64,000 nucleotides of DNA from the IMG/VR virus record IMGVR_UViG_3300025840_004398. One strand, 5' to 3'. Origin of the DNA: a virus (taxonomy: Duplodnaviria > Caudoviricetes). Below, piece after piece: positions 4,295 through 30,100 of the stretch. Position numbers and translations under genes: made by a program. Below the pieces are notes generated by a model that ran no database searches, was not told the DNA's origin, and worked only from the letters and a program-made list of their open reading frames with translations. Every line of letters begins with the position of its first letter. The stretch's first letter is position 1.

Positions 4295-4315
4295 TACTGA
4301 TAAGGTATATTGAAT

Positions 4316-7300
4316 ATGAGTAAACTTTCACAATATCTCGTAGAGCAAATGCTCTTAGAGGATGTAAATCCTATTAAGAAGGTCGTAGTAATTTATGGAG
4401 GCAGATTTCAACCATTCCATAAAGGACACTATGGTACTTATCAACACCTTGTCAAAAAATTCGGTAAAGATAACGTTTTTATCAGTACTTCAAACAAAGT
4501 AGAAAAACCAAAATCACCTTTTAACTTCAAAGAAAAGGTTAAGATTATGACTACTATGTTCAATATACCTAAATCAAAAATAGTACAGGTAAAAAACAAC
4601 TATGCACCGAAAGAAATCCTCGATAAATACGATAAAGAAACAACCGCCTTCGTAACTGTTGTTGGTATGAAAGATAAAAGTAGATTAGGTGGAAAGTATT
4701 TTAGACCTTGGAAGGGTGAGGCAGAAGTTGGTTATGAAGAAGGTGGATATGTGTACGCTGCACCATCACAAACCAATTCAGTTAGTGGTACTGAAGTACG
4801 AAACGGAATGTCAATGGGTTCTGATGACCAAAAAGAAAACTTTTTTACAAATAGAGCATATGGAAAGTTTAATAAGACAATCTTTAAGATGATTACTGAT
4901 AAACTGAATGAAGGTATCGCGATTCCTAAAGAAATTATTGAAGAATGGCTCATCAATGAGAGTTCTAACTTAGGTGGAAATGGTGGAAGAGATATTGATG
5001 ATGGTCCAAACTTCTTTATACCAAATTACGATGTATTCCAACGAGTATCTGCAAAAAGAGCAGCTAAGATTGGATATGAAGTGGTAAATATGATTACTTC
5101 AAAAGAAATTGAAGATTATTATGACCACCCAACTTATCCTGATGGACCTGTTAAAGCAGTTTCCTTCTTCCCTGCAGGTGTTATCGGTAACTTATCATCA
5201 AACAACCAAGTTGATATCTATTCAAGTGGTGCATACTCACAATGGTTTAAACACGCAACTCGTAAAGCTGCTTTAGCAGGATATCAATTAGTAAATTCTC
5301 TTGCTTCCAAAGAAGATATTACCCAAGATAAAAAAGTTGCAGGTGATGGAGCAAAAGGTGATAAAGAATTAAAGGATGAATTCGAAAAATCAATAAACGA
5401 AGCAATTACCTTACCAGTATCAGTTGGTGATACTATCTTAACTGGTAGATTTAAGAATAAAAAGGTAGTTGTTAAATCAATTGGTAAAGATGAACATGGT
5501 ATGCCAACCATCAATGGTAAAAAAGTAGTAACTTTCAGATTAATGAAAGAAGGATTCGTTACTGAACTTGCTGGAACTGCAGTTAGATGTGAAAAATGTA
5601 ATCATTCTTGGGATATAGAAGAAGATGATGATGAAAAATATCTATGTCATTCTTGTGGATGGGATTCACAACAACAAGAGTACGATTATGATGCATTTGA
5701 TTCATGGGCAGAAAAAAGTGGATTGTTTGAATCAATAGAAGAAGAAATAGATGAAAGAGGTGGTAAACTAAGACCAGCAGATATCCTAAGAAGAAAAGCT
5801 GCAAGAGCTGGTAAGAGAGCACAAATAGCAAGAAGAAGAAAAAGAACAATGATGAGAAAAAAACCTCTTGCAAAACTTAAAAAGATTGCCTACAAGATGG
5901 CATACAGACAAGTTTATGATGAATTTGCCCAAGAATTGTTCCCAAATACACCTAAATCAGATTTAACTATTCAACAAACTAAAGTTATTCACAGAAATGT
6001 ACTTAGAAAGAAAAAAAGAGTACTAAAAAGAGCAAGATTTAGATTCTTACCTGCTTTACGAGATAAAGAGTCTGAAAAGTTTGGTGGAAAAACTAACATT
6101 TCATTTGATAAACCAAAAGAAACCAACGAACAACTTGCAAAAGGAATGAGTTTAAAGGATATTGCTGATAAACATGGAGTTTCGTTTGAAGAATTATCAA
6201 AAGAAGCTAAAAAAGGTGTTAAAGTTGAAATGGAACATACTTCAGATGTGAAACAAGCATATAATATTGCAAAAGACCACTTATTTGAGGACCCAAAATA
6301 CTACACCAAACTTGCAACCATAGAAGAACTTGCTCCGCATGGATATCCAGACCAAAAATGGATGGATAATCACGAAAAAGAACTCAAAAAGTTGAGAACC
6401 ACAATGGATAAACAACAAAAAGAGTTCTATAAAGAACATATAAACGAATCAAACCTCCTAATGGAAGGTGGTGCGTACGGACACATGAACCACCCATTCG
6501 ATACTGATATCAATTTAACCTTTGGACAACTAAAAGATATCGTAAACAGAGCACTAGAAGGTAACTTAGAGTTAGCAAGAGAGAAAACTGATGGTCAAGC
6601 TCTTGCAATTTCATGGAGAGATGGTAGATTAGTAGCAGCAAGAAACAAAGGACACCTAAAAAACAGAGGTGAGAACGCTTTAGACATCAAAGGAGTAGCT
6701 GATAAGTTCGCTGGTAGAGGTGAATTAGAAAAGGCTTATAACTTTGCAATGCAAGACCTTTCAAAAGCAATAAGTTCACTTACTGAAAAACAAAGAAACA
6801 AGATTTTTAGAGGTGGAAGTTGTTTTATGAACCTTGAAGTAATATATCCATCCAATGCAAACGTAATTCCTTATGGTCAAGCGTTACTTGTGTTCCATGG
6901 AACGATGGAATATAATGATGAGGGTGTTGCAATTGGTGAAAATCAAGAAGCAGCAACTATTTTAGCGGGTATGATTAAACAAGTTAATCAAAATGTACAA
7001 GACAATTATACTATACAAGGTCCTCCTGTAATAAAATTGCCAAAATCACAAAACCTTTCATCAAAAAAATCAATATATACATCTAAAATCTCTAAATTAC
7101 AAAAAGAATTTAAATTAAAGGACACCGATGGAGTTGGTAATTACCACCAATCATGGTGGGAACAGTGGGTAGACAAAAATTCACCTTCATCCTTAGATAA
7201 TAGAACAAAAATGGGTCTTGTTAAAAGATGGGCTTTCTATGATAAAGGATTTAGAATCGATAAAAATAACATAAAAGACGAAAAAACTTTAAATTGGGCA

Positions 7301-7669
7301 TTAAAAACGGATAAAGAGGACCAACAGAAGATTGCTAAGAAAAATTTGATGAAATTCGAAGATATTTTCTTAGGTTTAGGAGCAGAGGTATTACAATTTA
7401 CTTCATCAGTACTAACTGTGAACCCTGATAAGGCAGTTCGTGATATGAAGAAACGAATTGATAAGACAATAAAGGATGTTAGAAAATCAGGTGACCCAAA
7501 AAAGATAGAAAAACTTAAATTAGAACTTCAAAGATTAAAATCTATTGGTGGAAAGGACAAAATAGTACCTAATGAGGGTATTGTGTTTGTTTATAACGGA
7601 AGTACCTTTAAGTTAACAGGAACATTCGCTCCTGTTAATCAATTATTAGGTATTTTCATGAGAGGATAG
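4316..7669 (+). CDS. Multidomain protein: HxGH nucleotidyltransferase (cytidylyltransferase-like) + unknown domain + SH3/KOW-like module + Zn ribbon + basic module + VEMEH..DHL module + C-terminal ligase-like (KxDG) domain
   Basis: YGGRFQPFHKGH (4418-4429) and SGTEVR; CEKC...CHSC; GVKVEMEHT...AKDHL.EDPKYYTKL; EKTDG (6581-6595), LEVIY, EGIVF, FKLTG. ATG at 4316 preferred over the TTG at 4310. Confidence 0.75.
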   Translation: MSKLSQYLVEQMLLEDVNPIKKVVVIYGGRFQPFHKGHYGTYQHLVKKFGKDNVFISTSNKVEKPKSPFNFKEKVKIMTTMFNIPKSKIVQVKNNYAPKEILDKYDKETTAFVTVVGMKDKSRLGGKYFRPWKGEAEVGYEEGGYVYAAPSQTNSVSGTEVRNGMSMGSDDQKENFFTNRAYGKFNKTIFKMITDKLNEGIAIPKEIIEEWLINESSNLGGNGGRDIDDGPNFFIPNYDVFQRVSAKRAAKIGYEVVNMITSKEIEDYYDHPTYPDGPVKAVSFFPAGVIGNLSSNNQVDIYSSGAYSQWFKHATRKAALAGYQLVNSLASKEDITQDKKVAGDGAKGDKELKDEFEKSINEAITLPVSVGDTILTGRFKNKKVVVKSIGKDEHGMPTINGKKVVTFRLMKEGFVTELAGTAVRCEKCNHSWDIEEDDDEKYLCHSCGWDSQQQEYDYDAFDSWAEKSGLFESIEEEIDERGGKLRPADILRRKAARAGKRAQIARRRKRTMMRKKPLAKLKKIAYKMAYRQVYDEFAQELFPNTPKSDLTIQQTKVIHRNVLRKKKRVLKRARFRFLPALRDKESEKFGGKTNISFDKPKETNEQLAKGMSLKDIADKHGVSFEELSKEAKKGVKVEMEHTSDVKQAYNIAKDHLFEDPKYYTKLATIEELAPHGYPDQKWMDNHEKELKKLRTTMDKQQKEFYKEHINESNLLMEGGAYGHMNHPFDTDINLTFGQLKDIVNRALEGNLELAREKTDGQALAISWRDGRLVAARNKGHLKNRGENALDIKGVADKFAGRGELEKAYNFAMQDLSKAISSLTEKQRNKIFRGGSCFMNLEVIYPSNANVIPYGQALLVFHGTMEYNDEGVAIGENQEAATILAGMIKQVNQNVQDNYTIQGPPVIKLPKSQNLSSKKSIYTSKISKLQKEFKLKDTDGVGNYHQSWWEQWVDKNSPSSLDNRTKMGLVKRWAFYDKGFRIDKNNIKDEKTLNWALKTDKEDQQKIAKKNLMKFEDIFLGLGAEVLQFTSSVLTVNPDKAVRDMKKRIDKTIKDVRKSGDPKKIEKLKLELQRLKSIGGKDKIVPNEGIVFVYNGSTFKLTGTFAPVNQLLGIFMRG

Positions 7670-7686
7670 TGTTTTTCCAATTATTA

Positions 7687-7696
7687 TATATTTATA
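7687..7696 (+). promoter_or_regulatory. Putative late promoter box TATATTTATA
   Basis: Recurrent motif, 27 nt upstream of the ATG at 7724. Confidence 0.55.
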
Positions 7697-7723
7697 TATA
7701 AAATTATAACCTAATATATAACA

Positions 7724-8383
7724 ATGGGTAAAGAATTCAAAAAGAAATATATGCACCCAACTCGTAGAAAGTTGGTAGATATGGTTCATACTGGAAAGTA
7801 TGACAAAAATGCAACTATTGGGTACGAGGGTAAGAAAGAAACTCGTAAAGTAGGTGATGTGTGGGAAGATGAACACCACAGATACGAAAAGAAAGAAGGA
7901 TTCATTGTAAAGACAGGAAAAAACTCTGAAGAATTCCAAAAAATTAGAGAATATCTAAGACAAAAATCAGAATGTAAAAATTCTGATTGTAAAACCATAA
8001 AAATAACCAAAAAAGATAAACAATTTATCGAAAAAGGTGGTTATTGTATGAATTGTACAATTGATAGAGAACATATCATTAAAACATCCGGTCTTTGGAA
8101 AGAATATGAAACATATAAGGTAACTACTCGTATGATAATCTTCGGAAAGACGAAATTAGATGCATATAGACAATCACTTGATGATTTAAAAGAAGAATAC
8201 GAAATGGTTGGTTCCGAAGGAAAAGTTACAGAAACTTGGAAACTACCAAAACCTATTGAAGAAGTTCGTTCTGAGATAAACGAATTAATTTATAGTGGAA
8301 GTATAGAGATAGAGGTTTTAGAAAAAGACAGAACTCAAGCTTTCGAGAAGTTACGAGAAGCTAACATGGAGCATTATTTATGA
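7724..8383 (+). CDS. Hypothetical protein with a possible Zn-binding CxxxxC...CxxC motif
   Basis: 219-aa ORF with typical codon usage; ECKNSDCK...GYCMNC. Confidence 0.7.
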   Translation: MGKEFKKKYMHPTRRKLVDMVHTGKYDKNATIGYEGKKETRKVGDVWEDEHHRYEKKEGFIVKTGKNSEEFQKIREYLRQKSECKNSDCKTIKITKKDKQFIEKGGYCMNCTIDREHIIKTSGLWKEYETYKVTTRMIIFGKTKLDAYRQSLDDLKEEYEMVGSEGKVTETWKLPKPIEEVRSEINELIYSGSIEIEVLEKDRTQAFEKLREANMEHYL

Positions 8384-8754
8384 GTGGTACAAGATACACA
8401 AATGCGTTAATCGTTATCTGTATGACCTTTTTGGCATTCACCCTATTCAATGTCAGAGGTTTAAAAACAGATATTCAAGGTTTCAATGAAAGAATTGATA
8501 ACATTGGAGCTGAAATAGATTCTATCCAAACTATGAACAAGGAATTGGATGGTTTAATAGAATCGTTACACACAGAACTCGAACTAATCGATGGTGATAT
8601 AGATAGAGTACAAAACAACATTTTTACAATAAGGAGAAATACAGATGAGAAAAAGAATTCTGTTGATAATCTTACTATTAGTGAGCTTCAAGAGTTTTTC
8701 GCAAAACGATACGATAGTATCCTTACGAGAACCAGTAGCGAAACTAGTAATTAA
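8380..8754 (+). CDS. Membrane-anchored coiled-coil protein (i-spanin-like)
   Basis: N-terminal hydrophobic helix ALIVICMTFLAFTLFNV followed by about 90 aa of heptad-rich sequence. Confidence 0.55.
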   Translation: MSGTRYTNALIVICMTFLAFTLFNVRGLKTDIQGFNERIDNIGAEIDSIQTMNKELDGLIESLHTELELIDGDIDRVQNNIFTIRRNTDEKKNSVDNLTISELQEFFAKRYDSILTRTSSETSN

Positions 8755-9047: not shown

Positions 9048-10640
9048 ATGGCTAAACAAAGTTTAAAGGAAATAATAAAAATTGAGTACCAGAAGTGTGC
9101 ATCAGACCCAATATACTTCATGAAGAAGTATTGTATGATACAACATCCTGTTCGTGGTAAAATTCCTTTTCACTTATACCAATTCCAAGAAAGAACCCTT
9201 ACTCAATTTAAAGACCATCGATATAACATTATCCTCAAATCAAGACAGACGGGTATTTCAACTTTAACTGCTGGATTTTCATTATGGAAGATGTTATTTA
9301 ACCAAGATTTTAACGTATTGGTAATTGCAACTAAACAAGAGGTTGCGAAAAACTTGGTTACCAAGGTTCGAGTGATGAATCAGTATTTACCTTCTTGGTT
9401 AAAACAAACAACAGTAGAAGATAACAAACTATCCTTACGATACTCCAATGGTTCTCAGATTAAAGCAACATCTGCAGCAGGTGATGCTGGTCGTTCTGAA
9501 GCACTATCCTTATTGGTATTTGATGAGGCTGCATTCATCGATAAGATTGAAGAAATTTGGGTATCTGCACAATCTACCTTATCAACGGGTGGTAATGCAA
9601 TTATCTTATCTACTCCAAATGGGGTGGGTAACTTCTTCCACAAAACTTGGGTGGGTGCAGAAGATGGTACAAACACATTCAACACTATTCGTTTACATTG
9701 GTCAGTTCATCCAGAACGAGACCAAACATGGAGAGATGAACAAGAGGTACTATTAGGACCAAAAGGAGCAGCACAAGAATGTGATTGTGATTTCGTAAGT
9801 TCGGGTGATACTGTTATCGACCCACAACTTCTAATGTTCTACAAAGAATCATTCGTACAAGAACCGATGGAGAAAACAGGTTTCGATGGAAACCTTTGGA
9901 AATGGGAATACCCAAACTATCAGAAATCTTATATGGTCGTTGCCGATGTTGCTCGTGGAGATTCTGCCGATTTCTCGGCATGTCATGTAATCGATATAGA
10001 AGAATCCTCACAAGTTGCTGAATATAAAGGTAAGTTAGATACAAAAGATTTTGGAAACTTCCTTGTATCTCTTGCTACTGATTACAACAACGCTCTACTT
10101 GTAATTGAAAACGCGAATATTGGTTGGGCAGTAATCCAACAAGTAATTGATAGAGGGTATGGAAATCTTTTCTATATGAGTAAAGATTTAAAGTATGTAG
10201 ATGTAGAAAATCAGTTACATAACAAATACAATAGAGAAGAAAGAAACATGACAGCAGGTTTCTCTACAACTTCTAAAACACGACCCCTAATTATCTCAAA
10301 GTTGGAACAGTATGTTAGAGAAAAAGAAATTACCATTCGTTCTTCAAGAACCATAGATGAGTTATTTACATTTATATGGAATGGTAATCGTGCAGAGGCA
10401 ATGAGAGGATATAACGATGATTTAACGATGTCTTTAGCAATTTCACTATGGGTAAGGGATACTGCACTCAGATTAAGACAAGAGGGAGTTGATTTAACTA
10501 AACAAGCATTGGGTGGTATTGGAGCACACTCATTAGATGTTGCAGGAATGGGATTTGGTGGTAATTCAGCATTAGAAGAAAATCCTTGGAATATGAGAGT
10601 TGGTGATAGAAATGAAGATTTAACTTGGTTAATTAAATAA
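9048..10640 (+). CDS. terL: Terminase large subunit (T4 gp17-like)
   Basis: ILKSRQTGIST (Walker A variant), LLVFDEAAF (Walker B), STPNG, nuclease ADVARG.S.DFSA, NDDL.M. Confidence 0.95.
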   Translation: MAKQSLKEIIKIEYQKCASDPIYFMKKYCMIQHPVRGKIPFHLYQFQERTLTQFKDHRYNIILKSRQTGISTLTAGFSLWKMLFNQDFNVLVIATKQEVAKNLVTKVRVMNQYLPSWLKQTTVEDNKLSLRYSNGSQIKATSAAGDAGRSEALSLLVFDEAAFIDKIEEIWVSAQSTLSTGGNAIILSTPNGVGNFFHKTWVGAEDGTNTFNTIRLHWSVHPERDQTWRDEQEVLLGPKGAAQECDCDFVSSGDTVIDPQLLMFYKESFVQEPMEKTGFDGNLWKWEYPNYQKSYMVVADVARGDSADFSACHVIDIEESSQVAEYKGKLDTKDFGNFLVSLATDYNNALLVIENANIGWAVIQQVIDRGYGNLFYMSKDLKYVDVENQLHNKYNREERNMTAGFSTTSKTRPLIISKLEQYVREKEITIRSSRTIDELFTFIWNGNRAEAMRGYNDDLTMSLAISLWVRDTALRLRQEGVDLTKQALGGIGAHSLDVAGMGFGGNSALEENPWNMRVGDRNEDLTWLIK

Positions 10641-11101: not shown

Positions 11102-12832
11102 ATGGCAGATACTTCATTTTTTGGGAGATTAACAAAACTTTTTCGTTCTCAAGCGGTAGTTACTATCGATAAGGATGGAAAACGTAACGTCTTTGATGGT
11201 GATGAAAGACAACAAACTAACTTGTCATCACTTAGAGATAGATACACCAAATTACAAAAATCTTTCTATGAACAAGCAGGTGGTGCTCAATCAATGGCAT
11301 ACCAACAAGTTCGTAGAGAAGTTTTTCGTGATTACGATGCAATGGATAATGACCCTATCCTTGCTTCTGCACTTGATATCTACGCAGATGAATGTACATT
11401 AAAGAATGAATTTGGAGATGTGATGTTAATTCAGTCAGATAATCCAAAAGTTCAAGAAATTCTTAACAACTTATTCTACGATATTCTTAATGTAGAGTTC
11501 AACCTATGGCCTTGGACAAGAAACTTGGTAAAGTATGGAGATTTCTTCTTAGGTTTAGAAGTTGCAGAAGGTAAAGGTATCGTAAACGTTACTCCACATT
11601 CTGTTTACAATACAGAAAGATTAGAAAGAACAGACCCATCAAATCCAAATTCAGTAAAGTTTAAAATTACTGAGGACCCGAATGGTAAAGAAGAATATGA
11701 AAACTTTGAAATCGCTCACTTTAGATTGTTAGCGGATACTAACTGGTTACCTTATGGTAAATCCATGATTGAGAATGGAAGAAGATTGTGGAAACAATTA
11801 TCTCTAATGGAAGATGCTATGTTAATTCATAGAATCATGAGAGCACCAGAAAAAAGAGTTTTCAAAATTGATATTGGTAATATCCCACCAACAGAAGTGG
11901 ATAACTATATGCAAAGAATCATCAACAAGATGAAGAAAGTTCCTTTCATCGATAGAAATACTGGTGATTATAACTTAAAGTACAATATGCAAAACCTAAC
12001 AGAAGATTTCTATCTTCCTGTTCGTGGTGGTGATAGTGGTACATCTATTGATAATCTCGCAGGTTTGGAGTACGCAACAATCGAAGATATTGATTACTTA
12101 AAGAACAAAATGTTTGCAGCTCTTAAAATTCCAAAAGCATATTTAGGATATGAAGAAAATGTAAATGGTAAAGCAACTCTTGCTGCAGAAGATGTGAGAT
12201 TTGCAAGAACAATCGAAAGAATCCAAAGAACACTTATATCGGAGTTATCTAAAATCGCTATTGTTCACTTATACGCACAAGGTATTCAAGATGCAGAAAT
12301 GACAAACTTTGAATTAAAACTTGTAAACCCATCTACGATTTACGAACAAGAAAGAGTAAACCTTTGGTCAGAAAAAGTTAGATTGGCACAAGATATTGTT
12401 GGTTTAAATATGTTATCTAAAGATTGGGTATATGAAAACATCTTTAAAGTTGCTGAAGGTGAACAAGATGAAGAAAGAACTAAAATCCTTGATGATATTA
12501 AAGATAGATACAGATATCGTATGATTGAAGATGAAGGTAACGACCCTGCAATGGATGATGAAGATGATGTAGATGATATTGAAGAATCTTTAGAGTCACT
12601 AAAACAAGAAATCAAAGATAAGGGTGGTAGACCAAGAGAAGGAAATACATATGGTAAAGATAAACACCCATATGGTAGAGACCCTTTAGGTGATAAAGAA
12701 AGAACTTCTAAAAGAAGTAGAACTTCTGAAGAAAAGGCTATAAAAATTATTAATGGTATAGCGGCAAAACGTAAATATTTACATGAAATGAAAGATATGT
12801 TAGATGAGTCTAACATTCTTGATAACGACTAA
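11102..12832 (+). CDS. gp20: Portal protein (T4 gp20-like)
   Basis: YGKSMIE..R..WKQL.LMEDAMLIHRIMRAPEKRVF.ID.GN.P, EDFYLP.RGG..GT.I..L.G, LKIPK.YL. Confidence 0.95.
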   Translation: MADTSFFGRLTKLFRSQAVVTIDKDGKRNVFDGDERQQTNLSSLRDRYTKLQKSFYEQAGGAQSMAYQQVRREVFRDYDAMDNDPILASALDIYADECTLKNEFGDVMLIQSDNPKVQEILNNLFYDILNVEFNLWPWTRNLVKYGDFFLGLEVAEGKGIVNVTPHSVYNTERLERTDPSNPNSVKFKITEDPNGKEEYENFEIAHFRLLADTNWLPYGKSMIENGRRLWKQLSLMEDAMLIHRIMRAPEKRVFKIDIGNIPPTEVDNYMQRIINKMKKVPFIDRNTGDYNLKYNMQNLTEDFYLPVRGGDSGTSIDNLAGLEYATIEDIDYLKNKMFAALKIPKAYLGYEENVNGKATLAAEDVRFARTIERIQRTLISELSKIAIVHLYAQGIQDAEMTNFELKLVNPSTIYEQERVNLWSEKVRLAQDIVGLNMLSKDWVYENIFKVAEGEQDEERTKILDDIKDRYRYRMIEDEGNDPAMDDEDDVDDIEESLESLKQEIKDKGGRPREGNTYGKDKHPYGRDPLGDKERTSKRSRTSEEKAIKIINGIAAKRKYLHEMKDMLDESNILDND

Positions 12833-14779: not shown

Positions 14780-14956
14780 ATGACAAAAAGACAATTGTAT
14801 GATATTATCAATGAAGAAATCGTTAATGTTAAAAAAGGCAAGATTAACGAGGAAATCACGAATGAAGATGAAAAACTCATTCGTGAATTGATACGTCAAG
14901 AGGTATCTGCAATTTTCTTTGATTTGTTTAAGAAACGTAAAATGTGGGGAGCATAA
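14780..14956 (+). CDS. 58-aa hypothetical protein (MTKRQLYDIINEEIVNVKKGKINEEITNEDEKLIRELIRQEVSAIFFDLFKKRKMWGA); not in the supplied ORF track
   Basis: Translated by hand; abuts the upstream stop, and its TAA overlaps the next ATG (TAATG). Confidence 0.7.
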   Translation: MTKRQLYDIINEEIVNVKKGKINEEITNEDEKLIRELIRQEVSAIFFDLFKKRKMWGA

Positions 14957-15546
14957 TGAGTAACTTACTAATAGAAACCAGATTATTCGAAGGTAGAGTA
15001 AACGAAGATAGTAGTGGAAGAACTATTGTTAAGGGTATTTTACAAAGAGCTGGTGCAGAAAATCAAAATGGGAGAATCTATCCAAAGGATATTCTTGAAA
15101 GAGAAGCTCAAAAGTACGAAACTCTTATCAAAGAAAGACGTGCTCTTGGTGAATTAGACCATCCTGATTCTTCAGTCATCAACCTAAAGAACGTATCTCA
15201 CAATGTAAGAGAGATTCATTGGGATGGTGATGATTTAGTTGGTACAGTAGAGATATTACCTACACCAAGTGGAAACATCTTAAAAGAATTATTAAAAGCA
15301 GGTATCCTATTAGGTATATCATCTCGTGGTATGGGTTCAGTAGAACCACTATCAGGTGGTAAAGTACAAGTAGGAGAAGATTTTGAGTTAATAGGTTGGG
15401 ATTTTGTATCTAACCCATCAACTCATGGTGCTTTCATGACACCAATGAACGAATCGATTAATAAACAATTAAAAGAACAAGTTGTTTGTGGCGATTATTG
15501 TAAAGCACAAGATATGATGAGAGAAATTATAACTGAATTAAGTTAA
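14956..15546 (+). CDS. gp21: Prohead core protease (T4 gp21-like)
   Basis: LLIE N-terminus, G.LQRA...NQNGR.YP, ALGELDHP, VSH, GISSRG.GS, DFVSNPS; start moved to the ATG at 14956. Confidence 0.93.
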   Translation: MSNLLIETRLFEGRVNEDSSGRTIVKGILQRAGAENQNGRIYPKDILEREAQKYETLIKERRALGELDHPDSSVINLKNVSHNVREIHWDGDDLVGTVEILPTPSGNILKELLKAGILLGISSRGMGSVEPLSGGKVQVGEDFELIGWDFVSNPSTHGAFMTPMNESINKQLKEQVVCGDYCKAQDMMREIITELS

Positions 15547-17113: not shown

Positions 17114-17872
17114 ATGAAATTAACCCAACTCATAAAAGAAAATGAAGAAAGACCTTTATCTACTGAGGTAAAGAGACACTTCCTTGAAATCGTTTCTACT
17201 TACAACAAGTACCAAGAATCGATGGATAGAAAATCTGATATTATCAAAGTAGCAGAAACCCTTGGTGGTATTACTGAAGCTGCTAGAACACTTGCAATCA
17301 AAGAAGCAGGAGATTGGTTCGATAAACACACAGTTAAGAGAAACATGAGTGAATTGGATAAGTTGGGTAAACAATTCGATAAAGTTGCTCTTGAGGCTCG
17401 TGCACTTGACCAAAGAATGGCAGGATTGTACGAAGATATGGGACATATCCTTTCAAGATACTATAAGTTTGGTGAAATCACAGAGGACCAAATGAAACAA
17501 AGATTAGGTATCAAAGAATCTAAAGATGGTGGTTGTGGATGTGGATGTGGCTGTGGTGGTAACAAATCAGTAAACGAAGAAACAATCACAGAGCAACCAG
17601 TAATGATTTCTAAAAGAACAGAAAGTGGAAACATTGTAACTACTTTAAAAGAAGTATCTGATTTAAACGAAGAAGAAGTTAAACTTTATGAGTTTGGTTT
17701 AAAGGTTGAAAAAGTATTGATGAGTGAAAAATCTTGTCCAACTGATGCTTCTAAATGGTCTTACTACAAAGGACAAGCTAAAAAGAAATTCGATGTTTAT
17801 CCATCTGCATACGCTAATGGTTGGGCTGCAAAACAATACAAATCAGCTGGAGGTGGTTGGAAAAACTGTTAA
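17114..17872 (+). CDS. Head-module protein: helical domain, GCGCGCGC segment, C-terminal basic YPSAYANGW module
   Basis: AGGAG RBS; MKLTQLIKE tag; KFDVYPSAYANGWAAKQYK..GGGW. Confidence 0.8.
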   Translation: MKLTQLIKENEERPLSTEVKRHFLEIVSTYNKYQESMDRKSDIIKVAETLGGITEAARTLAIKEAGDWFDKHTVKRNMSELDKLGKQFDKVALEARALDQRMAGLYEDMGHILSRYYKFGEITEDQMKQRLGIKESKDGGCGCGCGCGGNKSVNEETITEQPVMISKRTESGNIVTTLKEVSDLNEEEVKLYEFGLKVEKVLMSEKSCPTDASKWSYYKGQAKKKFDVYPSAYANGWAAKQYKSAGGGWKNC

Positions 17873-17882
17873 GGAGAGAACA

Positions 17883-19787
17883 ATGGCATCAGTAGTAGGT
17901 AAAACAATTTTTTCAGATGGTAAAGGTAAACTGTTCTTCGGTTATTACAAAACCGATGATGCTGTTGAATTTGTAGATTACAAAACTTGGAAGAAACTTT
18001 CTTTCAAAGATGTATCCAAAGGTGATACCAACAAAGAACGAGTAATCAAAGCAATCGTAAAGAACCAAAAACAATTCAATAAGAAAGTTGATTTCAATAT
18101 GTGGGCTAAGAAACAAAAAAGAAGTTTCGAGGACACTATGGATTGGTTTATCCAAAATGGTTGGATTAATAACGTTACCAAAAGAGGAATTAAAGAATCT
18201 GTTGATGTATTATCAATAAACGAAATATTAGTAATAGTAGATAAGTTTGATAAAAGAAAACAAGATTACGGTAAAATTTATTGGAAAGATGGTGGTAGAG
18301 GACCAGGTGATGGTGATATCAACAAGGCAAAAAAAGAATTTGCTAAATTGAGTAAGAAACACAAAGGTTTATCTCTCGTATCAGTTGGTAGAAATAGCAG
18401 GATGTATGATGTAATGGATGAATCAGTAAACGAAGCAATGAAACCATCACAAGTTCGTTCAGCAATTTCAAAAGTTAAAAAAGGACTAATGAGAAAGTGG
18501 AAACAAAAAGGTGGATACGAAAACTTTGGACAAAAAGAACTTTCTCAAATGAAAGATAAGTTTGATTACAATCCATATGGTTCACCTGATGAAAGACAGA
18601 TTTCAAAGATGTTAGATGGATTTGATGATTGGGCAATGAACTACGATGGTAATATGAGAGAAGGTAAAAAAAGATTCAAAAGACAAGATGGTATTGGTAA
18701 AGCAAAATACACTATCTCTTACCACGATGGAAAAAAGAAACACAAAGATGGTAGTGATTTCTTTGATATGAAAATCTTCAAAAACAAAAAAGATTTAAGT
18801 GATTTTGTTGGTTCACTTGTAAAACAAGGATATAAACTAACAAATGAATCAGTAAACGAAGTTAAATATGATACTGCTCTTGCTGACTTTAATAAAGAGT
18901 TAGAAAAAAACTCTGAAGTTAGAAAAGCAGCAAAACATTACAAAAAATCTACAAAAGATGTTGTAAAGGCATTGCAATCAAAAATTAAAGTAAATAGATA
19001 TAGTGATAAATCTATTAAACAAGTATCTATTGATTATAAAGAAGATGGGCCACTTTCAAGTAAAGTATCTATAAAATTATCTAAAGATTACAAACAAAAT
19101 GAATCAGTAAACGAAGATAGAAATTCTAATATGTTCTATGTTCTTTACCAAAAGAAAGGTGTCTTTGGTAAACCTGCAGCAGCTGGATATAAAGATAGAA
19201 AAGATGCTGAAAAATTTGCTAAGAGTTTAGGAAATAATCACAACACAATGATTCTTGATAAACAATCAATGAAGAATGTAAAAGGTGTTGATGTAAACGA
19301 ATCAGCAAGTAAAGAAGCAATGGGTATTGCAGCATTAACTGGTACTCGTGGTTCTGCGGTTCAAGATTTCATTGATAAAAATAGAATCAATAGTAAGAAA
19401 TTATTTAAAGCATTAAAATCAGCAAACCTACAAGGTAGAATTAACTTCGCTAATGGATTAGCTGGTAAACCTGGTAATCCAAACGCAAAACTTACAATCA
19501 AACTTTTTGGTGAATCAGTAAACGAAGCTAAATTTGGTTACAAAGACTCTAAAGCTTCATACATCAAGAAACACAAAGATGAGTATAAACAAGCAGAGAA
19601 AATGAATAATGGGAATGAAAAACGTTTCTACGATTTGTTACAACAAATGGAAGATAAAGTAGGACATCCTAAAACTATGTTATTTATCTCTAATGCACTT
19701 CGTGGTTATGGTGTTGATATGTACAAAGACCCAAAGATTAAAAATCCACAAGATGCACAAGAGGCTCTTTTCTTATTGAGTAAATAA
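17883..19787 (+). CDS. 634-aa putative polyprotein of about 8 small basic modules separated by ESVNE-type linkers
   Basis: AGGAG at 17872-17876 supports the ATG at 17883 rather than 17724; ESVNE x4 plus related linkers. Confidence 0.8.
   Translation: MASVVGKTIFSDGKGKLFFGYYKTDDAVEFVDYKTWKKLSFKDVSKGDTNKERVIKAIVKNQKQFNKKVDFNMWAKKQKRSFEDTMDWFIQNGWINNVTKRGIKESVDVLSINEILVIVDKFDKRKQDYGKIYWKDGGRGPGDGDINKAKKEFAKLSKKHKGLSLVSVGRNSRMYDVMDESVNEAMKPSQVRSAISKVKKGLMRKWKQKGGYENFGQKELSQMKDKFDYNPYGSPDERQISKMLDGFDDWAMNYDGNMREGKKRFKRQDGIGKAKYTISYHDGKKKHKDGSDFFDMKIFKNKKDLSDFVGSLVKQGYKLTNESVNEVKYDTALADFNKELEKNSEVRKAAKHYKKSTKDVVKALQSKIKVNRYSDKSIKQVSIDYKEDGPLSSKVSIKLSKDYKQNESVNEDRNSNMFYVLYQKKGVFGKPAAAGYKDRKDAEKFAKSLGNNHNTMILDKQSMKNVKGVDVNESASKEAMGIAALTGTRGSAVQDFIDKNRINSKKLFKALKSANLQGRINFANGLAGKPGNPNAKLTIKLFGESVNEAKFGYKDSKASYIKKHKDEYKQAEKMNNGNEKRFYDLLQQMEDKVGHPKTMLFISNALRGYGVDMYKDPKIKNPQDAQEALFLLSK
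18420..19526 (+). repeat. Four exact in-frame copies of GAATCAGTAAACGAA (ESVNE) at 18420, 18846, 19101 and 19512; a 14-nt copy at 17565
   Basis: Read directly; spacings 426, 255 and 411 nt. Confidence 0.9.
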
Positions 19788-20152
19788 TGAAACTCCAAGA
19801 ACTATTTACAGAAATTATCGAAGAAAACAGATGTATCCATTGTGGAAACATTGTTAACGAAGATTTAAAAAATTGGTTTAAATCTAAATGGGTAAACATT
19901 GGTAAAAAAGTTGGTGGAAAGCATCCACCTTGTGGAACAAGTGGTTCAAAGAGTGGATACGCTAAATGTGTTCCAGCTGCAAAAGCAAAAACTATGAGTA
20001 AGAAAGAAAAAGAATCTGCAACTCGTAGAAAAAGAGCAGCACAAAACAAGGCAGGAAGAGGTGGAGTAAATTCACCAGGTCAAGGTAAAAAACCAATAAA
20101 CGTTTCAACACATACTAAAGGAAGAAAATCAGGAACTGGTAAAGGTTCTTAA
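19787..20152 (+). CDS. Small basic Cys-containing protein with an N-terminal tag (MKLQELFTE)
   Basis: CIHC, EDLKNWFKSKWV, PCG...YAKCVP motifs; very Lys-rich. Confidence 0.75.
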   Translation: MKLQELFTEIIEENRCIHCGNIVNEDLKNWFKSKWVNIGKKVGGKHPPCGTSGSKSGYAKCVPAAKAKTMSKKEKESATRRKRAAQNKAGRGGVNSPGQGKKPINVSTHTKGRKSGTGKGS

Positions 20153-20195: not shown

Positions 20196-20522
20196 ATGGC
20201 AAAAAACAAAACATTGGTATCGGTCAAAGTAATAAAAGGAGATATCAACAGAGCACTTAAAAAATACAAAAGAAGAGTTAACGATAGTGGACATCTTCTT
20301 GAACTACGAGATAGAAAAACTTATACAAAACCCAAAACCATTCGTAGGAAAGCAAAACAACAAGCAATTAGAGAACAACAGAAAGAAACTATTCTTGGTA
20401 AAATTGCTGATGGTGATAATACTCTAAGGTTTTATACAAAAAAGAAAAAAACCAAACCAAATAAACCCAAAAATAACAATAATCAAGAAAAAACCATAGA
20501 AAACTATGGTTTAAAAATGTAA
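20196..20522 (+). CDS. rpsU: Phage-encoded ribosomal protein bS21 with a C-terminal extension
   Basis: V.V..GDINRALKKYKRRV..SG.L.ELR.R..Y.KP...RR matches the bS21 pattern; located in the head module. Confidence 0.85.
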   Translation: MAKNKTLVSVKVIKGDINRALKKYKRRVNDSGHLLELRDRKTYTKPKTIRRKAKQQAIREQQKETILGKIADGDNTLRFYTKKKKTKPNKPKNNNNQEKTIENYGLKM

Positions 20523-20688: not shown

Positions 20689-21879
20689 ATGGCAAATTCA
20701 AATTTGTTAAAAGAAGCCATCGCTGATGCTAAAGCTGTTAGAGAAACTGCTATTGCTAATGCAAAGATTGCACTTGAAGAAGCATTTACTCCAAGATTAC
20801 AATCTATCCTTTCTCAGAAACTTCAACAAGAAATGGAAGAAGAAGTAACTGAAGAAGTAGAAGATGTAAACGAGGAAGAAGTAACTGAAGAAGTTTCTGA
20901 AGAAGTAGTTAACGAAGAAGAGATTGAAGAATCTACTGAAGAAGTTAACGAAGAAGAAATCTCTGAAGAATCTGAAGAAGTAACTGAAGGTGAATACACT
21001 GCAGAAGGTGAAGAGCAAATCACTGCTGAATCAGAAGAAGTAACGGAATCGGAAGAAGTTGATGAAGCTTTATCTGTAACTGTTTCTGAAACTGAGGAAG
21101 AAGAAGAAGCTGATGTAAGCGAAGAGGCTGAAGAAGAAGGTGATGAAGTTGAAGAAACTTATCACGAAGAAGAAGAATCAGATGAAGATGAACTTGATTT
21201 AGAAGCTATCATCAGAGAACTTGAAGAAGAACTCGATGATGAAGAAGAAGAACAAGTTGCTGATATCGCTGATGACGCTGTTGCAGGTCATGAAGATGAT
21301 ATGCACGAAGAAGAAGAAGAAGAAGCTGGTGAAGAAGAAGCTGAAGAAGCTGAGGAAGAAGCTGGTGAAGAATCTGAAGAAGATTTAGATGAAGAAATCG
21401 ACCTTAACGAAATCCTAAGAGAAATGGGATACGGTGAGGAAGAAGAATCTGAAGAAGAAGTTTCTGAAGAAGTTGTAGAAGAAACTAACGAACTTGATGA
21501 GGTTAAAGCAGAATTGGAAGAAGCAATGTCTACTATCAAAGAACTTAAATCTACTATCAACGAAGTTAATTTGTTAAACGCAAAACTTCTTTACACTAAC
21601 AAACTATTCCGTTCTTATGACTTAACTAACGAACAAAAAATGAAAGTTGTTGAGACACTAGACAGAACTGGTAACGTAAGAGAAGTAAAATTGGTATTCA
21701 GTACATTAGCTGAATCATTCAAGTTTACTGGAACTACGAAAAAACAAAAACAAACTGCTAAAATCAACGAATCATTCGCATCTAAGCCCGTTGCTTCAAC
21801 TGCTCCTACTAAGGAAGTAATTACTGAGTCAACTAACACGATGGCTGAAAGATTTAAGAAATTGGCTAATATTAATTAA
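20689..21879 (+). CDS. gp22: Prohead scaffold/core protein (T4 gp22-like), extremely Glu-rich
   Basis: Directly upstream of the MCP; conserved-looking termini (LLKEAIADAKAVRE; EVNLLNAKLLY.NKLF) around a long acidic linker. Confidence 0.85.
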   Translation: MANSNLLKEAIADAKAVRETAIANAKIALEEAFTPRLQSILSQKLQQEMEEEVTEEVEDVNEEEVTEEVSEEVVNEEEIEESTEEVNEEEISEESEEVTEGEYTAEGEEQITAESEEVTESEEVDEALSVTVSETEEEEEADVSEEAEEEGDEVEETYHEEEESDEDELDLEAIIRELEEELDDEEEEQVADIADDAVAGHEDDMHEEEEEEAGEEEAEEAEEEAGEESEEDLDEEIDLNEILREMGYGEEEESEEEVSEEVVEETNELDEVKAELEEAMSTIKELKSTINEVNLLNAKLLYTNKLFRSYDLTNEQKMKVVETLDRTGNVREVKLVFSTLAESFKFTGTTKKQKQTAKINESFASKPVASTAPTKEVITESTNTMAERFKKLANIN

Positions 21880-21904: not shown

Positions 21905-23515
21905 ATGGCAAATTTTGATTTATCTAAACTTATGGAAGGAAAGAACCCACAACAAGTAATGTTGTCTGAGACAAGAGAACTTAGAGGTAAATGGGAACAA
22001 ACTGGACTTCTAGAAGGTTTAAACGAGAGAGAACAGTCTCAAATTTCTGTTCTACTTGAAAACCAAGCAAAACAATTGCTTGATGAGTCAACAGCTACTG
22101 GTACTTCTGCAGGTTCAGAAGAGTGGTCAGGTGTTGCACTTCCTTTAGTAAGAAGAATCTTCGGTGAAATTGCATCGAAAGAATTCGTTTCGGTACAACC
22201 GATGAACTTACCTTCAGGACTTATATTTTATTTAGATTTCAAATACGGAACTGCAACAGGTGGTAAATCTACTGGTGCTGCTGGTTCTTTATTTGGTGGT
22301 ACTGGTGGAGCTACTCCAGCAGCTGGATTCGGTCAAACTCAAGCGGCTGAAAACGGTCTTTATGGTGACGGTGCTTACGGATACACAGTAAACGAAACAT
22401 CTGTAACTGGCAAATCAACTGTATCATGGGGTTCTGCTTCATTGGCTGATGTATCTTATGATTCTTCACTTTCTGCTTCAATTGCAGCTGGTGAAATAGC
22501 AAAAGTTACTATCGCACTTTCTGACTTAACTGGAAACGAAGATAGAGATGCAGTACGTTCATTTAGAATTGCTGATTCAGATATTTCTGATTACTATCCA
22601 GCACATACTTCAGAAGATGGAACAAACATTACTTTCATCGTTAAAGCTGATGGTGCTGCTGACCCAGGTACAATAGATACTATCTATTATTCACTACAAC
22701 CAACTGATATCACAAGAGGTGATTTTGAAGATGCTTCTCCATCTGAACCAGCAACTGATATCGGAATTCCAGAAGTTGACCTTGAATTGAAGTCTGAAGC
22801 AATTGTTGCTAAGACAAGAAAATTAAAGGCAGTATGGACTCCTGAACTTGCTCAAGACCTTAACGCTTACCACTCAATTGATGCAGAAGCTGAATTGACT
22901 TCAATGTTATCAGAGTACATCTCATTAGAGATTGACCTTGAAATCCTTGATATGTTAAAAGCTAACGCTCTTACAACTGAGTACTGGTCAGTAACTTTAG
23001 GTGAAGAGTATGATTCAATCGCAGGAACTTGGTCTAACTCAAGTTCAGCAGCTGCTTACACTAAGAACTCTTGGTTCCAAACTCTTGGTGCGAAACTTAA
23101 CAAAGTTTCTAACAAGATTCACCAATTGACTCTTAGAGGTGGTGCTAACTTCGTAGTTGCATCTCCTGATGTATGTACTATCTTAGAATCAATCCCAGGA
23201 TTTACAGTTTCTGCTGATAAAGATGCTTCATCTTTCGCAGCTGGTGTAACTACTGTTGGTTCTATTGCAAACAGATACACAGTTTACAAAAACCCTTACA
23301 TGACTTCAAACGAAATCTTGTTAGGATTTAAAGGAAGCAACTTCCTTGAAACTGGAGCTGTATATGCACCATATGTACCACTTATCATGACACCTTTAGT
23401 GTACGACCCAACTAACTTCACTCCAAGAAGAGGAGTTATGACTCGTTACGCTAAGAAAATGGTAAGACCAGAATTCTATGGTAAAATCTATGTTAAAGAT
23501 TTAGCTAACCTATAA
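21905..23515 (+). CDS. gp23: Major capsid protein (T4 gp23-like)
   Basis: KWEQTGLLEGL, LPLVRRIF, VSVQPM.LPSGLIFYLDF, RKLKA.WT.ELAQDL.AYH, GAVYAPYVPL, GVMTRY; AGGAG RBS. Confidence 0.97.
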   Translation: MANFDLSKLMEGKNPQQVMLSETRELRGKWEQTGLLEGLNEREQSQISVLLENQAKQLLDESTATGTSAGSEEWSGVALPLVRRIFGEIASKEFVSVQPMNLPSGLIFYLDFKYGTATGGKSTGAAGSLFGGTGGATPAAGFGQTQAAENGLYGDGAYGYTVNETSVTGKSTVSWGSASLADVSYDSSLSASIAAGEIAKVTIALSDLTGNEDRDAVRSFRIADSDISDYYPAHTSEDGTNITFIVKADGAADPGTIDTIYYSLQPTDITRGDFEDASPSEPATDIGIPEVDLELKSEAIVAKTRKLKAVWTPELAQDLNAYHSIDAEAELTSMLSEYISLEIDLEILDMLKANALTTEYWSVTLGEEYDSIAGTWSNSSSAAAYTKNSWFQTLGAKLNKVSNKIHQLTLRGGANFVVASPDVCTILESIPGFTVSADKDASSFAAGVTTVGSIANRYTVYKNPYMTSNEILLGFKGSNFLETGAVYAPYVPLIMTPLVYDPTNFTPRRGVMTRYAKKMVRPEFYGKIYVKDLANL

Positions 23516-27178: not shown

Positions 27179-30100
27179 ATGGCAACATTAATTCAAAGTA
27201 AACAGATAGAGGGTATTGTAACCGCCTCGGTAATCGAAGGACAACTTTCGGTTTCTGGTTCCATTATTGCAACAGGTTCACAATCCGTATTTTCACAAAT
27301 AACAGCATCTGCTATCTCATCATCGGGTCCTATTTATGGAGTTCGTTATGATGATATAGATGGTACTCCCAACTTCATAGCAGGTACTGGTATTGTTATT
27401 ACCCAAGTTGGTGATAATATTACAATTACAAATACTGGTGGTGGAGGTGGTGGTGTATCCGGTTCCGCAGAATTAATATCTTCAGTTGCTCAACTAAACG
27501 CTTATACTGGTTCTAATGATATCATTATCTTAGGATTAAATCAATTTACTGCATCAATACAATCACAAGTTGATTCTTTAATCGCATCAACATCTTCATA
27601 CGAAACAACTGGTAGGGGAATCATATCAGGCTCATCACAATTAACATCATCTTTAGATTCAAGATATGCATTAAGTGGTAGTATTGGTGGTGGTTCTACT
27701 GATATTTCTTCCTTAAATACATTTACGAGTTCAATACAAACTCAAGTAGATGGATTATCGGCAGCAACTTCATCTTATATTACTGAAATACCACAAGGAA
27801 CAATTAGTGGTTCACAACAAATTTCTGATTTAGGATTTGTAACAAGTTCATCAACTTCTGTACCAGCAGGAACAATTAGTGGTTCTGCTCAAATTACTGC
27901 ATTAGGATTTACATCAGGTTCTCATACTGATATTCCAAGTGGAGTAATTAGTGGTTCAACGTTTACTGATTTTAGTTCTTCAGTTGCAACTGATATTTCT
28001 AATTTAGAATCTACTTTAACTACGAGAGTTGATGGAGTTGAACAGGTTGTTGTAAGTAGATTAGATAATATTGAAACGTTTACATCTTCTATTGATACAA
28101 GAGTAACTGCATTAGAAGGAGCAACTGATTTAACAGGTTCAGATACTCAAACACTTTCGATTAGCGGTGACCAACTTACAATATCAAGTGGAAATACTAT
28201 AACCATACCAACGGGTAGTAGTTCATCTATACCAGCAGGAACAATTAGTGGTTCTACTCAAATTACTAATATAATCACAGATTCTTATATTTCTGAATCA
28301 GCAGCTAGAAGTGGTTTCGGTTCAGGTGGTGGGGGTTCTACTGATATTACATTATTAAACTCATTTACTTCCTCTTATTATATAGATTCTGCTTCGTTTG
28401 ATTCAAGAATTGGTGATATTATAGAAACCGGTTCTGTTATTGCTCCTTTTGCATTTGCTAGAGTAGCTACAACTTCTAATGGTTCAGGTACAGATATTAG
28501 TTGGGCAAATTGGAACTTCTTAAATGGAACACTTGATTTTACATTTTCAACCCCTCAACCTGATACTAACTATATTGTTGTAACTGATGCTGAACTTAAT
28601 GATGATGGTCGTTTAGTTTCAATTCAAAATAAAACAGTTAATGGATTTGAGGCTTCATTCTACACCACTTCTGGAGTAACAACCCCATCGGGTGTAAATC
28701 CATTCACTATTATGGTTTATGGGTCAAACCCAACCCAAACAGTAAGAGTTAATGTAACTGGTGCACCTGCAGGAACAATTAGTGGTTCATCTCAAGTTGA
28801 TATTACACAAACAGATGGATATACTACTTTTAGTTCATCAATTCAATCAACTATTGATGCAATTCAACATACTCAAATTCCAAGTGGTACTGTTAGTGGT
28901 TCTACTCAAATTACTAATATAATTACAGATGAATATATTTCATCATCAGCAGCAGCAAGTGGATTTGGTAGTGGTGGTTCTACTGATATTTCTGCTCTTA
29001 ACTCATTCACAAGTTCTGCAGATACAAGAATTACTAATTTAGAAAACTTTAGTTCTTCATTAGATTCTACTTTCGCAACTGATAGTGAATTATCATCACT
29101 TTCATCTTCTATTGCAACAACAATAGATAATATTCAACATACTGATGTAACTAAATTAAATGAGTTTACTTCATCAATCCAATCTGAAGTTGATTCATTA
29201 ACTTCGGCTACTTCATCTTACTTAACTTCACTTCCAAGTGGATTAGTTAGTGGTTCAACCCAAATTACTGATGGTAGTAATATTGTTAGTGGTTCAGTAT
29301 TAAGAACTTTAGATGGAACTGGTGTAGTTAGTGGAAGTGTACTTAGAACTTTAGATGGAACAGGAGTAGTAAGTGGTTCTGTTTTAAGAACACTTGATGG
29401 TACTGGTGTAGTTAGTGGTTCGGTACTTAGAACTTTAGATGGTACAAATGTATTTAGTGGTTCAATTTTACCTGGAACAAACATTACAATAGATTCATCA
29501 AGTGGTGATTATGTAATCTCATCTACCGCAAGTGGTAGTGGTAGTGGTGATGTTTCCTTTGATGGAAATAGAGTAATATCAAATACTTTATTAGGAGATT
29601 TATATACAGATGGATTTAATGCCGGCACAAGTGGAAGTATTCAAGATTTCTTATCAGCTGTATTCTTCCCATCTTATGCACCAGTAGCTACATTTAGTAC
29701 TCAGACATCAAATTTGAATACAAACCTTGGTACTGAAAATGGAGTAATAGAAACGTTCACTTTAACTGATGAAGATAGTAATACACCATATTCAGCAACT
29801 ATAAGTGGTACAAATGCAAGTTCATTTAAGTTAGTACCACAAAATTCAAACTCATCATCGTGGGAAATACAATCAGCAACTGATTTATCTGCTGGCTCAT
29901 ACACCTACGATATAACTGTAACTGATTCTAATAATGATACAAGAACTTATAGTGGAAGAAGTGTAACAATTGCACAAGCAGAAACAGGTTCTCTTTCTAC
30001 AACAGGTACACTATACATTATAGAATCTGCAACTACTGGTCCAATTTATCTTGGAACAAATGGTAGAAGTGGAACTCAAGGTGGGGTAAGTGTTTCTTAC

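Follow-up and report, generated by a model that had tools for sequence, protein, structure and literature searches.

The window considered here is the whole 64,000-nucleotide (nt) stretch of the virus record IMGVR_UViG_3300025840_004398 from IMG/VR (Duplodnaviria; Caudoviricetes), a low-GC (33%) structural region of an uncultured T4-like phage in which one strand carries all genes. Its subject is a single gene, referred to below as the polyprotein gene, in which eight small basic modules are joined end to end by short linkers, the commonest of which is identical in DNA as well as in protein. The gene belongs to a run of unassigned open reading frames (ORFs) that stands between the gene for a prohead protease and the genes for ribosomal protein bS21, a scaffold-like protein and the major capsid protein. 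The ORF is open on the + strand from 17883 to 19787 and encodes 634 amino acids (aa), with AGGAG located ~7 nt upstream of the ATG. A GTG start at 17724 was considered and is unlikely, as the longer reading would overlap the preceding gene.

Gene and module layout

The encoded chain splits into modules A to H at four exact copies of Glu-Ser-Val-Asn-Glu (ESVNE) and at three looser joints of the x-x-Glu type. All modules lie on the + strand. Module A (17883-18224, aa 1-114) ends in LSINE at 18210-18224, module B (18225-18434, aa 115-184) ends in ESVNE, the 15-mer that encodes it lying at 18420-18434, and module C (18435-18662, aa 185-260) ends in NMRE at 18651-18662. Module D (18663-18860, aa 261-326), which opens with GKKRF, and module E (18861-19115, aa 327-411) both end in ESVNE (18846-18860 and 19101-19115 respectively), and module F (19116-19301, aa 412-473) ends in DVNE at 19290-19301, where it shares the 9-mer GTAAACGAA (19293-19301). 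The helical module G (19302-19526, aa 474-548; SASKEAMG...) again ends in ESVNE (19512-19526), and module H (19527-19787, aa 549-634) runs to the stop codon. The NMRE that follows module C appears to be a decayed linker; relatives show NMSESINE at this place.

The modules are 62-114 aa long and have isoelectric points (pI) of 9.4-10.3, with lysine making up 12-23% of each module and 17.4% of the polyprotein as a whole, compared with 4.7% in the other ORFs of the window. In a pairwise comparison none of the modules was clearly similar to another, the best match having an E of ~0.01. An earlier note on this DNA, made from the letters alone, had described the gene as an array of about eight small basic proteins joined by ESVNE, and the open ORF, the four exact 15-mers and the eight Lys-rich modules bear this out. 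The joints that it listed do exist, although it put MRE four residues too late (the joint is at aa 260 and not at aa 264). Its description of the modules as poor in glutamate holds only mildly, with 0-5 Glu per module core, whilst the complete lack of Glu in module D was correct.

Mosaic relatives

A protein search retrieved more than 1100 metagenomic homologues, many of which match the query closely over a short portion only (for example with 96% identity over 18% of its length). Counts of motifs, module clusters and module orders were made on the best 120 of these, and among them ESVNE is by a wide margin the commonest 5-mer, with 299 occurrences at positions that differ from protein to protein. 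When the 120 proteins are cut at S[VIL]xE or [VIL]NE, 138 module clusters are obtained, mostly rare ones. Each of the modules of the window is present in between 23 and 84 of the 120 homologues, with module G reaching the 84, and can be found anywhere from the N-terminus to residue 781. The modules occur in 65 different orders, with module A mostly N-terminal and module H mostly C-terminal.

IMG/VR contigs with the same gene order were furthermore compared in the slot that is bounded by the homologues of ORF 17114 and ORF 19787. Where the window reads ABCDEFGH, and with x standing for a module that is not found in the window, the slot reads A x C D F G H in contig L001, x x x C D G H in L003, A F H in L004, x D F x G H in L006, x F D G x in L016 and ...G D A in L018. 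Elsewhere modules C, A and E are found joined to ORFs that precede the protease gene (in L011, L013 and L009, with module C in both L011 and L013). The earlier note had named invariance of module content and order as what would speak against its reading; in this comparison of the orthologous locus both vary widely among relatives.

The lineage has been seen in freshwater, estuarine, salt-marsh and marine samples. A search for near-identical DNA among GenBank phages found nothing similar for the region. Judged by the capsid protein, Flavobacterium phage immuto and Microcystis phage Mel-JY01 are the nearest cultured relatives (52-53% identity); neither has the polyprotein, and the matching place in their genomes holds small or different ORFs only. 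In Mel-JY01 (L023) the ORF that follows bS21 in the slot between protease and scaffold (7398-8564) encodes a 388-aa protein, the C-terminal part of which reads by eye like an ADP-ribosyltransferase (YRAVS...STTL...ESEII, the R-S-E pattern) and recalls T4 Alt, an enzyme that is packaged and that gp21 processes.

Exchange of modules at the linker

Breakpoints were located by blastn of the region against 14 non-redundant loci, using the ends of high-scoring segment pairs (HSPs) that fall inside the gene. Of 53 such ends 38 lie no more than 10 nt from a linker, where 4.2 would be expected, and this number was reached in none of 20000 simulations. The test had placed the MRE joint at 18674; its true position, 18662, is a better fit to the ends found at 18659-18666.

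For module F the identity is 97-98.5% in L004, L006 and L016, the backbones of which are 77-86% identical, and for modules C-D it is 98-99% in L001 and L003. In contigs whose modules reach 97-99% identity, that of the protease, scaffold and capsid genes is 77-90%. That the modules are so much more alike than the backbone points to recent exchange at the level of the module. At the junction of modules D and F in L001, 45 of 45 positions to the left of the 18846 linker are followed by the 15-mer and then by 45 of 45 positions to the right of the 19101 linker, and module E is absent from this contig as an exact insertion or deletion of 255 nt between two copies of the 15-mer. In an estuary contig 18841 is joined to 19097, which leaves out 255 nt, and 20 nt fit both sides; in a salt-marsh contig the joint runs from 18851 to 19293 and leaves out 441 nt (modules E and F), the 9-mer fitting both sides. 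Joints of the same kind are seen in contigs from marine samples. Module B has been replaced in L001 and in runs X7 and X21, with joints from 18211/18224 to 18419/18422. For the public runs only stretches with contig cover were counted as evidence, and many contigs from these runs end at linkers, in the way that assembly graphs stop where neighbours differ.

The HSP ends, the 255-nt difference and the joints from independent samples are in agreement with the suggestion of the earlier note that breakpoints would be found at the linker DNA. These comparisons show the linker DNA (GAA TCN GTA AAC GAA) to be an in-frame joint at which single modules are deleted, inserted, replaced or reordered, with the consequence that the cargo set turns over far faster than the surrounding head genes. 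The data fit a 15-mer that causes the shuffling as well as one that merely marks where viable joints survive, and do not decide between the two.

Copies, codons and silent sites of the linker

The 15-mer GAATCAGTAAACGAA is present in exactly four copies, at 18420, 18846, 19101 and 19512, and a copy with one mismatch that encodes KSVNE is found at 17564-17578 within the upstream ORF 17114-17872. When up to two mismatches are allowed there are 8 matches against 0.25 expected, a number that was reached by none of 100 shuffles. The core 9-mer GTAAACGAA has 10 copies in the window against 0.43 expected, six of which fall within the two cargo ORFs. Outside the head cargo region there are exact matches to the 12-nt word AATCAGTAAACG at 35504-35515 and at 27960-27971 (- strand), one of them near the C-terminus of the 1036-aa ORF 32485-35595, where it is read in frame as x-S-V-N-x.

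The earlier note had cautioned that the linker might simply be made of codons that are favoured in this genome, and had pointed to the match near 35504. The match exists, but the identity of the linker DNA exceeds what codon preference in the window would give, because with the codon usage of the window an ESVNE would be written as this 15-mer with a probability of 0.055, and AAC accounts for a minority (36%) of Asn codons. Silent sites were also compared in a set of 49 ESVNE junctions, taken from the window and the related loci such that their flanks are less than 80% identical to one another. The Val codon of the linker is GTA in 48 of the 49 (local background 0.44, P 2e-16), and 45 have AAC for Asn (background 0.33, P 1e-17). 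Glu is encoded by GAA at the first codon in 49/49 and at the last in 48/49, and Ser is always TCN with a third base that drifts (TCA 36, TCG 11). As a protein motif, too, ESVNE is tighter than would seem necessary for the protease, the capsid site being LLDE and other joints being INE, MRE, LNE and VNE. This surplus of conservation, in protein and in DNA, fits homogenisation by recombination at the linker or selection for it, and is not proof that the repeat is the cause.

The linker as a candidate protease site

In T4 the prohead protease gp21 recognises a short motif, L/I-x-E, and cuts behind its Glu (PMC9026906); in gp22 the bond that is cut is Glu-Ala, and a targeting leader of ~10 residues is removed from the internal proteins at such a motif (PMC9026906, PMC3012670). 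The window encodes a prohead protease of this type, with a Peptidase_S77 domain, at 14944-15546 on the + strand (Pfam PF03420, E 9.5e-28; phrog_207), 2.3 kb from the polyprotein gene. In an alignment to the T4 gp21 structure 5jbl its His (ELDHP) and Ser (SSRG) are retained. Just before the Pfam domain, its N-terminus contains LIE (aa 9-11) and RVNE (aa 18-21; the 9-mer GTAAACGAA at 14998-15006), and a LIE-9 has likewise been noted for T4 gp21 (PMC9026906).

The linkers of the polyprotein read V-N-E, homologues also have I-N-E and L-N-E, and the Val at P3 differs from the L/I of T4. All nine [LIVM]-x-Glu sites of the polyprotein are at or beside module ends, and among 217 distinct ESVNE contexts 166 have a small residue (A/G/S/D) at P1'. 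In the capsid protein a maturation site is predicted at aa 57-62 (QLLDE/S, where the slash marks the cut after Glu61), and the pattern QL[LIV][DS]E/[SA] is found ~20 residues before the VALPLVRR core in the capsid protein of the window, in all related loci and in both cultured relatives. We take this position to correspond to the place at which T4 gp23 is matured.

In relatives where module A is N-terminal it follows a leader of 4-7 residues, MLNE or MEKMLNE, ending at the Glu of the putative cut, and where module A is internal it follows ESVNE, with DFKA next, or ESINE, with AD next. A gene that encodes module G by itself (P0262) has an amphipathic leader, MKEQLRKIVREIMRE...TSVNE, which is followed directly by SASKEAMG, and this is the layout of a T4 internal protein. 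The leaders of module A and of P0262 would be hard to explain without processing, and the V-N-Glu motif together with the head context fits cleavage by the adjacent gp21-type protease.

Surrounding head genes

Upstream of the protease are the genes for the large terminase (TerL, 9048-10640) and for a T4-type portal gp20 (11102-12832), the latter separated from the protease by three ORFs without assignment. Further upstream, before the terminase, a 1119-aa ORF (4310-7669) combines an N-terminal domain resembling cytidylyltransferases with a DUF5661 domain, and bears a KSINE site at 5387-5401 that matches the linker 15-mer at 13 of 15 positions; it may be another cleavable multidomain cargo protein.

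Next to the polyprotein gene on its upstream side lies a modular cargo ORF (17114-17872, + strand), the N- and C-terminal parts of which are internal polyprotein modules in relatives (clusters M13 and M9). This ORF contains a Cys-Gly repeat, GCGCGCGCGG (DNA TGTGGATGTGGATGTGGCTGTGGT), directly 5' of its KSVNE linker (17534-17578, aa ~141-155), and in relatives similar CGCGC(G/S)G...(I/V)xE stretches are found right before module A. The repeat may be a metal-binding or redox element beside a putative cut site. On the downstream side is a small cargo-like ORF (19787-20152, + strand) with a leader, MKLQELFTE, and a weak match to DUF5872 that is below the Pfam cut-off; a segment related to it is an internal polyprotein module in relatives (cluster M28).

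The bS21 gene follows at 20196-20522 (PF01165, E 2e-10). It stands between the cargo and scaffold genes, and has the same spot in Mel-JY01 and in most related loci. Directly 5' of the capsid gene is a very acidic scaffold-like protein (20689-21879, + strand) with no match in Pfam or PHROGs, which has ~122 Glu in 396 aa, long EEV/EEE runs and a charge opposite to that of the adjoining basic cargo; several sites of the INE, ITE and VNE type are present in its C-terminal part. The major capsid protein itself is of the gp23 type (21905-23515, + strand; Pfam PF07068, E 4e-76).

A freshwater metatranscriptome contig of 2471 nt (run X1) spans positions 17396-19866 of the window, and so the whole polyprotein gene, with zero differences, and three more RNA libraries contain 60-97% of its sampled words. 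These matches are suggestive of expression in situ, with carry-over of DNA a possibility, and the contig is not proof of transcription because such libraries can contain DNA.

Folding and identity of the modules

A full-chain AlphaFold2 model, built from an alignment of colinear multi-module pieces, has a predicted template modelling score (pTM) of 0.23. It contains confident islands at modules D, F, G and H (block means 64-88), and its confidence dips below 50 at residues 321-333, 469-473 and 545-562, which are linkers. Modules A-C were modelled poorly and no conclusion is drawn on their folds. The earlier note had held that a chain folding as one unit would count against it, and these predictions, a low overall score and islands split by low-confidence linkers, point to a chain that does not fold in that way. 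When modelled alone, from 72 family members, module D has a mean predicted local distance difference test (pLDDT) score of 82.6 and a pTM of 0.62, and forms three strands, a helix and a further strand (beta-beta-beta-alpha-beta), with its last four residues, SVNE, disordered. Stand-alone members of the module D family end soon after the domain and are without ESVNE, which together with the disordered SVNE tail indicates that the linker is an appendage outside the fold.

Module D is found in 673 representative clusters, at any position within proteins of 63-1188 aa. Its stand-alone forms are 63-107 aa long and occur in arrays of very small ORFs in other phage-like contigs. The 72 members share an invariant Gly, Lys, Asp, Gly and Phe, as well as a nearly invariant Tyr, His, Asp, Gly, His and Ser, a pattern of conservation that points to a specific binding or catalytic site. 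In one contig (L028, 375-2119) a free 63-aa homologue of module D is three genes away from a weak match to the antirestriction domain ArdC-N, and a DUF2786 protein is also present. In other phage-like elements the module D domain may be expressed as an early gene. A search for stand-alone homologues of single modules had been proposed in the earlier note, and such homologues are present for at least modules D and G.

The identity of the modules is not revealed by searches of known families. Pfam and PHROGs gave no match to the polyprotein. For the polyprotein with 67 homologues, Pfam gave only DUF3008 (in 5 proteins) and single matches to NosL and Anthrax-tox_M, both with E >1e-4, and PHROGs gave, for the same 68 proteins, only families of unknown function. 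A search of a protein atlas with the polyprotein returned no usable match, and a profile search of the PDB with the module D family found nothing below E 0.3. Fold searches were uninformative, both for module D against the PDB, BFVD and clusters of AFDB and for the full model against PDB representatives; the best matches, with E 0.04-0.1 or Z 5.8, were to generic small beta-alpha folds, and two AFDB matches to module D with a template modelling (TM) score of 0.88 are unnamed proteins of 60-79 aa that belong to the same family.

Comparison with known systems

Literature searches found no description of linker polyproteins of this kind. The closest known system is that of the T4 internal proteins and their capsid targeting sequence. 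The internal proteins of T4 are small and basic, are packaged and ejected, and are highly variable behind a conserved targeting element; one of them, IPI*, blocks a restriction enzyme (PMC3012670). The polyprotein resembles IPI, IPII, IPIII and Alt (PMC3012670, PMC9026906) in that these are small basic proteins of a T4-type phage with a repertoire that varies behind a short element, and also in the hydrophobic-x-Glu motif and the Peptidase_S77 protease, the cleavage here being predicted from sequence. In T4, however, the proteins are encoded by separate genes, each with its own N-terminal leader of ~10 residues, whereas here up to eight or more are fused, the element is an internal linker, the chain is leaderless and the locus has the protease gene on one side and the scaffold gene on the other. 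As for homology to the T4 internal proteins, tblastn against GenBank phages gave no match, and the fold searches with module D and with the full model listed no IPI* structure, which does not exclude homology to IPI*.

The polyvalent proteins (Iyer et al. 2017, PMC5512222) are also mosaic phage proteins with multiple (2-15) domains that are shuffled and thought to be delivered with the DNA, and some of them are proteolytically processed before or after packaging (PMC5512222). Their domains, however, are large and recognisably enzymatic or DNA-binding, their processing is ascribed to a zincin-like metallopeptidase domain of their own, and they have neither a standard linker nor a link to gp21-type sites, in contrast to the orphan modules of 60-115 aa and the one fixed word of 5 residues and 15 nt described here. 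None of the conflict domains of polyvalent proteins that were looked for (zincin-like metallopeptidase, ParB-like nuclease, ArdC-N, methylase, helicase and others) was found with Pfam or PHROGs in the polyprotein and 67 homologues.

In the giant phages phiKZ, 201phi2-1 and SPN3US (PMC5694885, PMC7411985, PMC9026906) a diverged homologue of gp21 cuts many head proteins after the Glu of a short motif, sometimes at several sites per protein, and the products are packaged and ejected. This is mostly the removal of propeptides from larger proteins that form paralogous families; the proteins are not arrays of unrelated modules with a linker conserved as DNA, and no shuffling at the sites has been described. 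At the level of DNA the nearest analogue is the promoter-early stem-loop (PeSL) of T4-type phages, a short repeated element that likewise marks points of cassette exchange (PMC2839356, PMC4122927). PeSLs are non-coding and regulatory and are located between whole early genes, whereas the repeat seen here is coding, in frame, within a late gene of the structural module and a putative protease site.

Proposed mechanism and alternatives

We think it fairly probable that the polyprotein is a cargo protein that enters the core of the prohead, where the gp21-type protease cuts it after the Glu of the linkers and its products remain associated with the DNA. In this reading a cassette polyprotein of capsid cargo would be made late, alongside the head genes, and the chain would be taken into the prohead core; speculatively, its strong positive charge could be drawn to the very acidic scaffold. 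The adjacent protease would then cut after the Glu of each V/I/L-N-Glu linker, releasing about eight lysine-rich proteins of 7-13 kDa that would stay with the DNA like the internal proteins of T4, and the freed modules would probably leave with the DNA at infection. We are a good deal more tentative in suggesting that the products are ejected effectors against host defences and that the linker DNA is itself selected as microhomology. By analogy with IPI* of T4, counter-defence or protection of the DNA would be the most likely class of function for the modules. The broadest form of the idea, in which one 15-nt word is both a cut site in the protein and a standard in-frame connector in the DNA with which abundant aquatic T4-like phages put together, time and again, custom sets of pre-made proteins for injection before any gene is expressed, with the orphan families as a pool of effectors, is doubtful. 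The interpretation put forward in the earlier note is on the whole partly supported.

Several observations weigh against this cargo model. No homologue in a cultured phage was found by tblastn of the whole polyprotein against 50,697 phage records. The polyprotein starts MASVVGK, without a T4-like capsid targeting leader that would give it a route into the prohead, and neighbouring ORFs do have leaders (MKLTQLIKE, MIKLKSLIQE and MKLQELFTE). Within modules other [LIV]-x-Glu sites are only weakly depleted (53 against 69 expected, P 0.018), and in the modules of the window protein alone the depletion is not significant (1 against 2.9 expected, P 0.18). TVNE is present inside the body of the capsid protein (9-mer at 22388), and the motif alone therefore cannot suffice for cleavage. 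The Asn codons of the capsid gene favour AAC by 21:1, such that part of the silent-site signal could be due to translational selection, and linker joints would be expected anyway if recombinants survive only when they are in frame and preserve domains.

It would seem unlikely that the chain stays uncut, as a multidomain basic protein that binds DNA or fills the core of the head, or as a late protein that is not part of the virion, with ESVNE as a flexible inherited linker between domains. The richness of all modules in lysine, as for neutralising the charge of bulk DNA, would suit such a protein, as would the motif in the body of the capsid protein, but every [LIVM]-x-Glu site sits at a module end, the motif fits the rule of a gp21-type protease encoded 2.3 kb away, and the LNE leaders and the SVNE leader of the stand-alone module make sense only if they are processed. 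Cleavage and packaging could also yield mere structural filler, histone-like and charge-neutralising, the diversity of which reflects weak constraint and not an arms race, a possibility to which we give limited credence. The uniformly basic pI of all eight modules agrees with filler, as do the lysines of T4 internal proteins that contact DNA phosphates (PMC3012670) and the lack of a match between any module and a known anti-defence family in Pfam or PHROGs; on the other side, the invariant residues of module D and its free forms of 63-107 aa suggest a specific function that is independent of the capsid, and modules that are 97-99% identical across diverged backbones indicate recent spread and not neutral decay.

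The linker DNA, for its part, could be idle in recombination, with selection keeping in-frame chimeras of whole domains and with codons that reflect translational accuracy or the common descent of a module and its linker. Given that in the capsid gene AAC is optimal for Asn, that the third position of the Ser codon drifts and that breakpoints are found at the decayed NMRE joint as well, where the 15-mer is missing, this is conceivable, if on balance doubtful. Against it, GTA is nearly fixed in the linker although GTA is not preferred over GTT in the capsid gene (16:14), ESVNE is far stricter than the apparent need of the protease, and the joints that were observed fall within shared stretches of 9-20 nt.

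Significance

If the cargo polyprotein is cut and its products are injected, the phages of this lineage would have a rapidly exchangeable set of ready-made small proteins that act before phage gene expression, at the time when restriction and many other defences strike. The standard linker allows modules to be delimited by sequence alone, and a few hundred contigs give more than 100 orphan domains of 60-115 aa that can be tested against defence systems. Should the dual role of the linker be true, it would be a natural coding sequence under selection in two capacities, as a site for the protease and as a joint for recombination, and a dual-purpose linker of this kind would offer a design principle for engineered phages whose capsids are to be loaded with several proteins encoded by a single gene. 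In that case the orphan module families, which number in the hundreds, would constitute a large unexplored pool of immediate-early effectors for counter-defence or host takeover.

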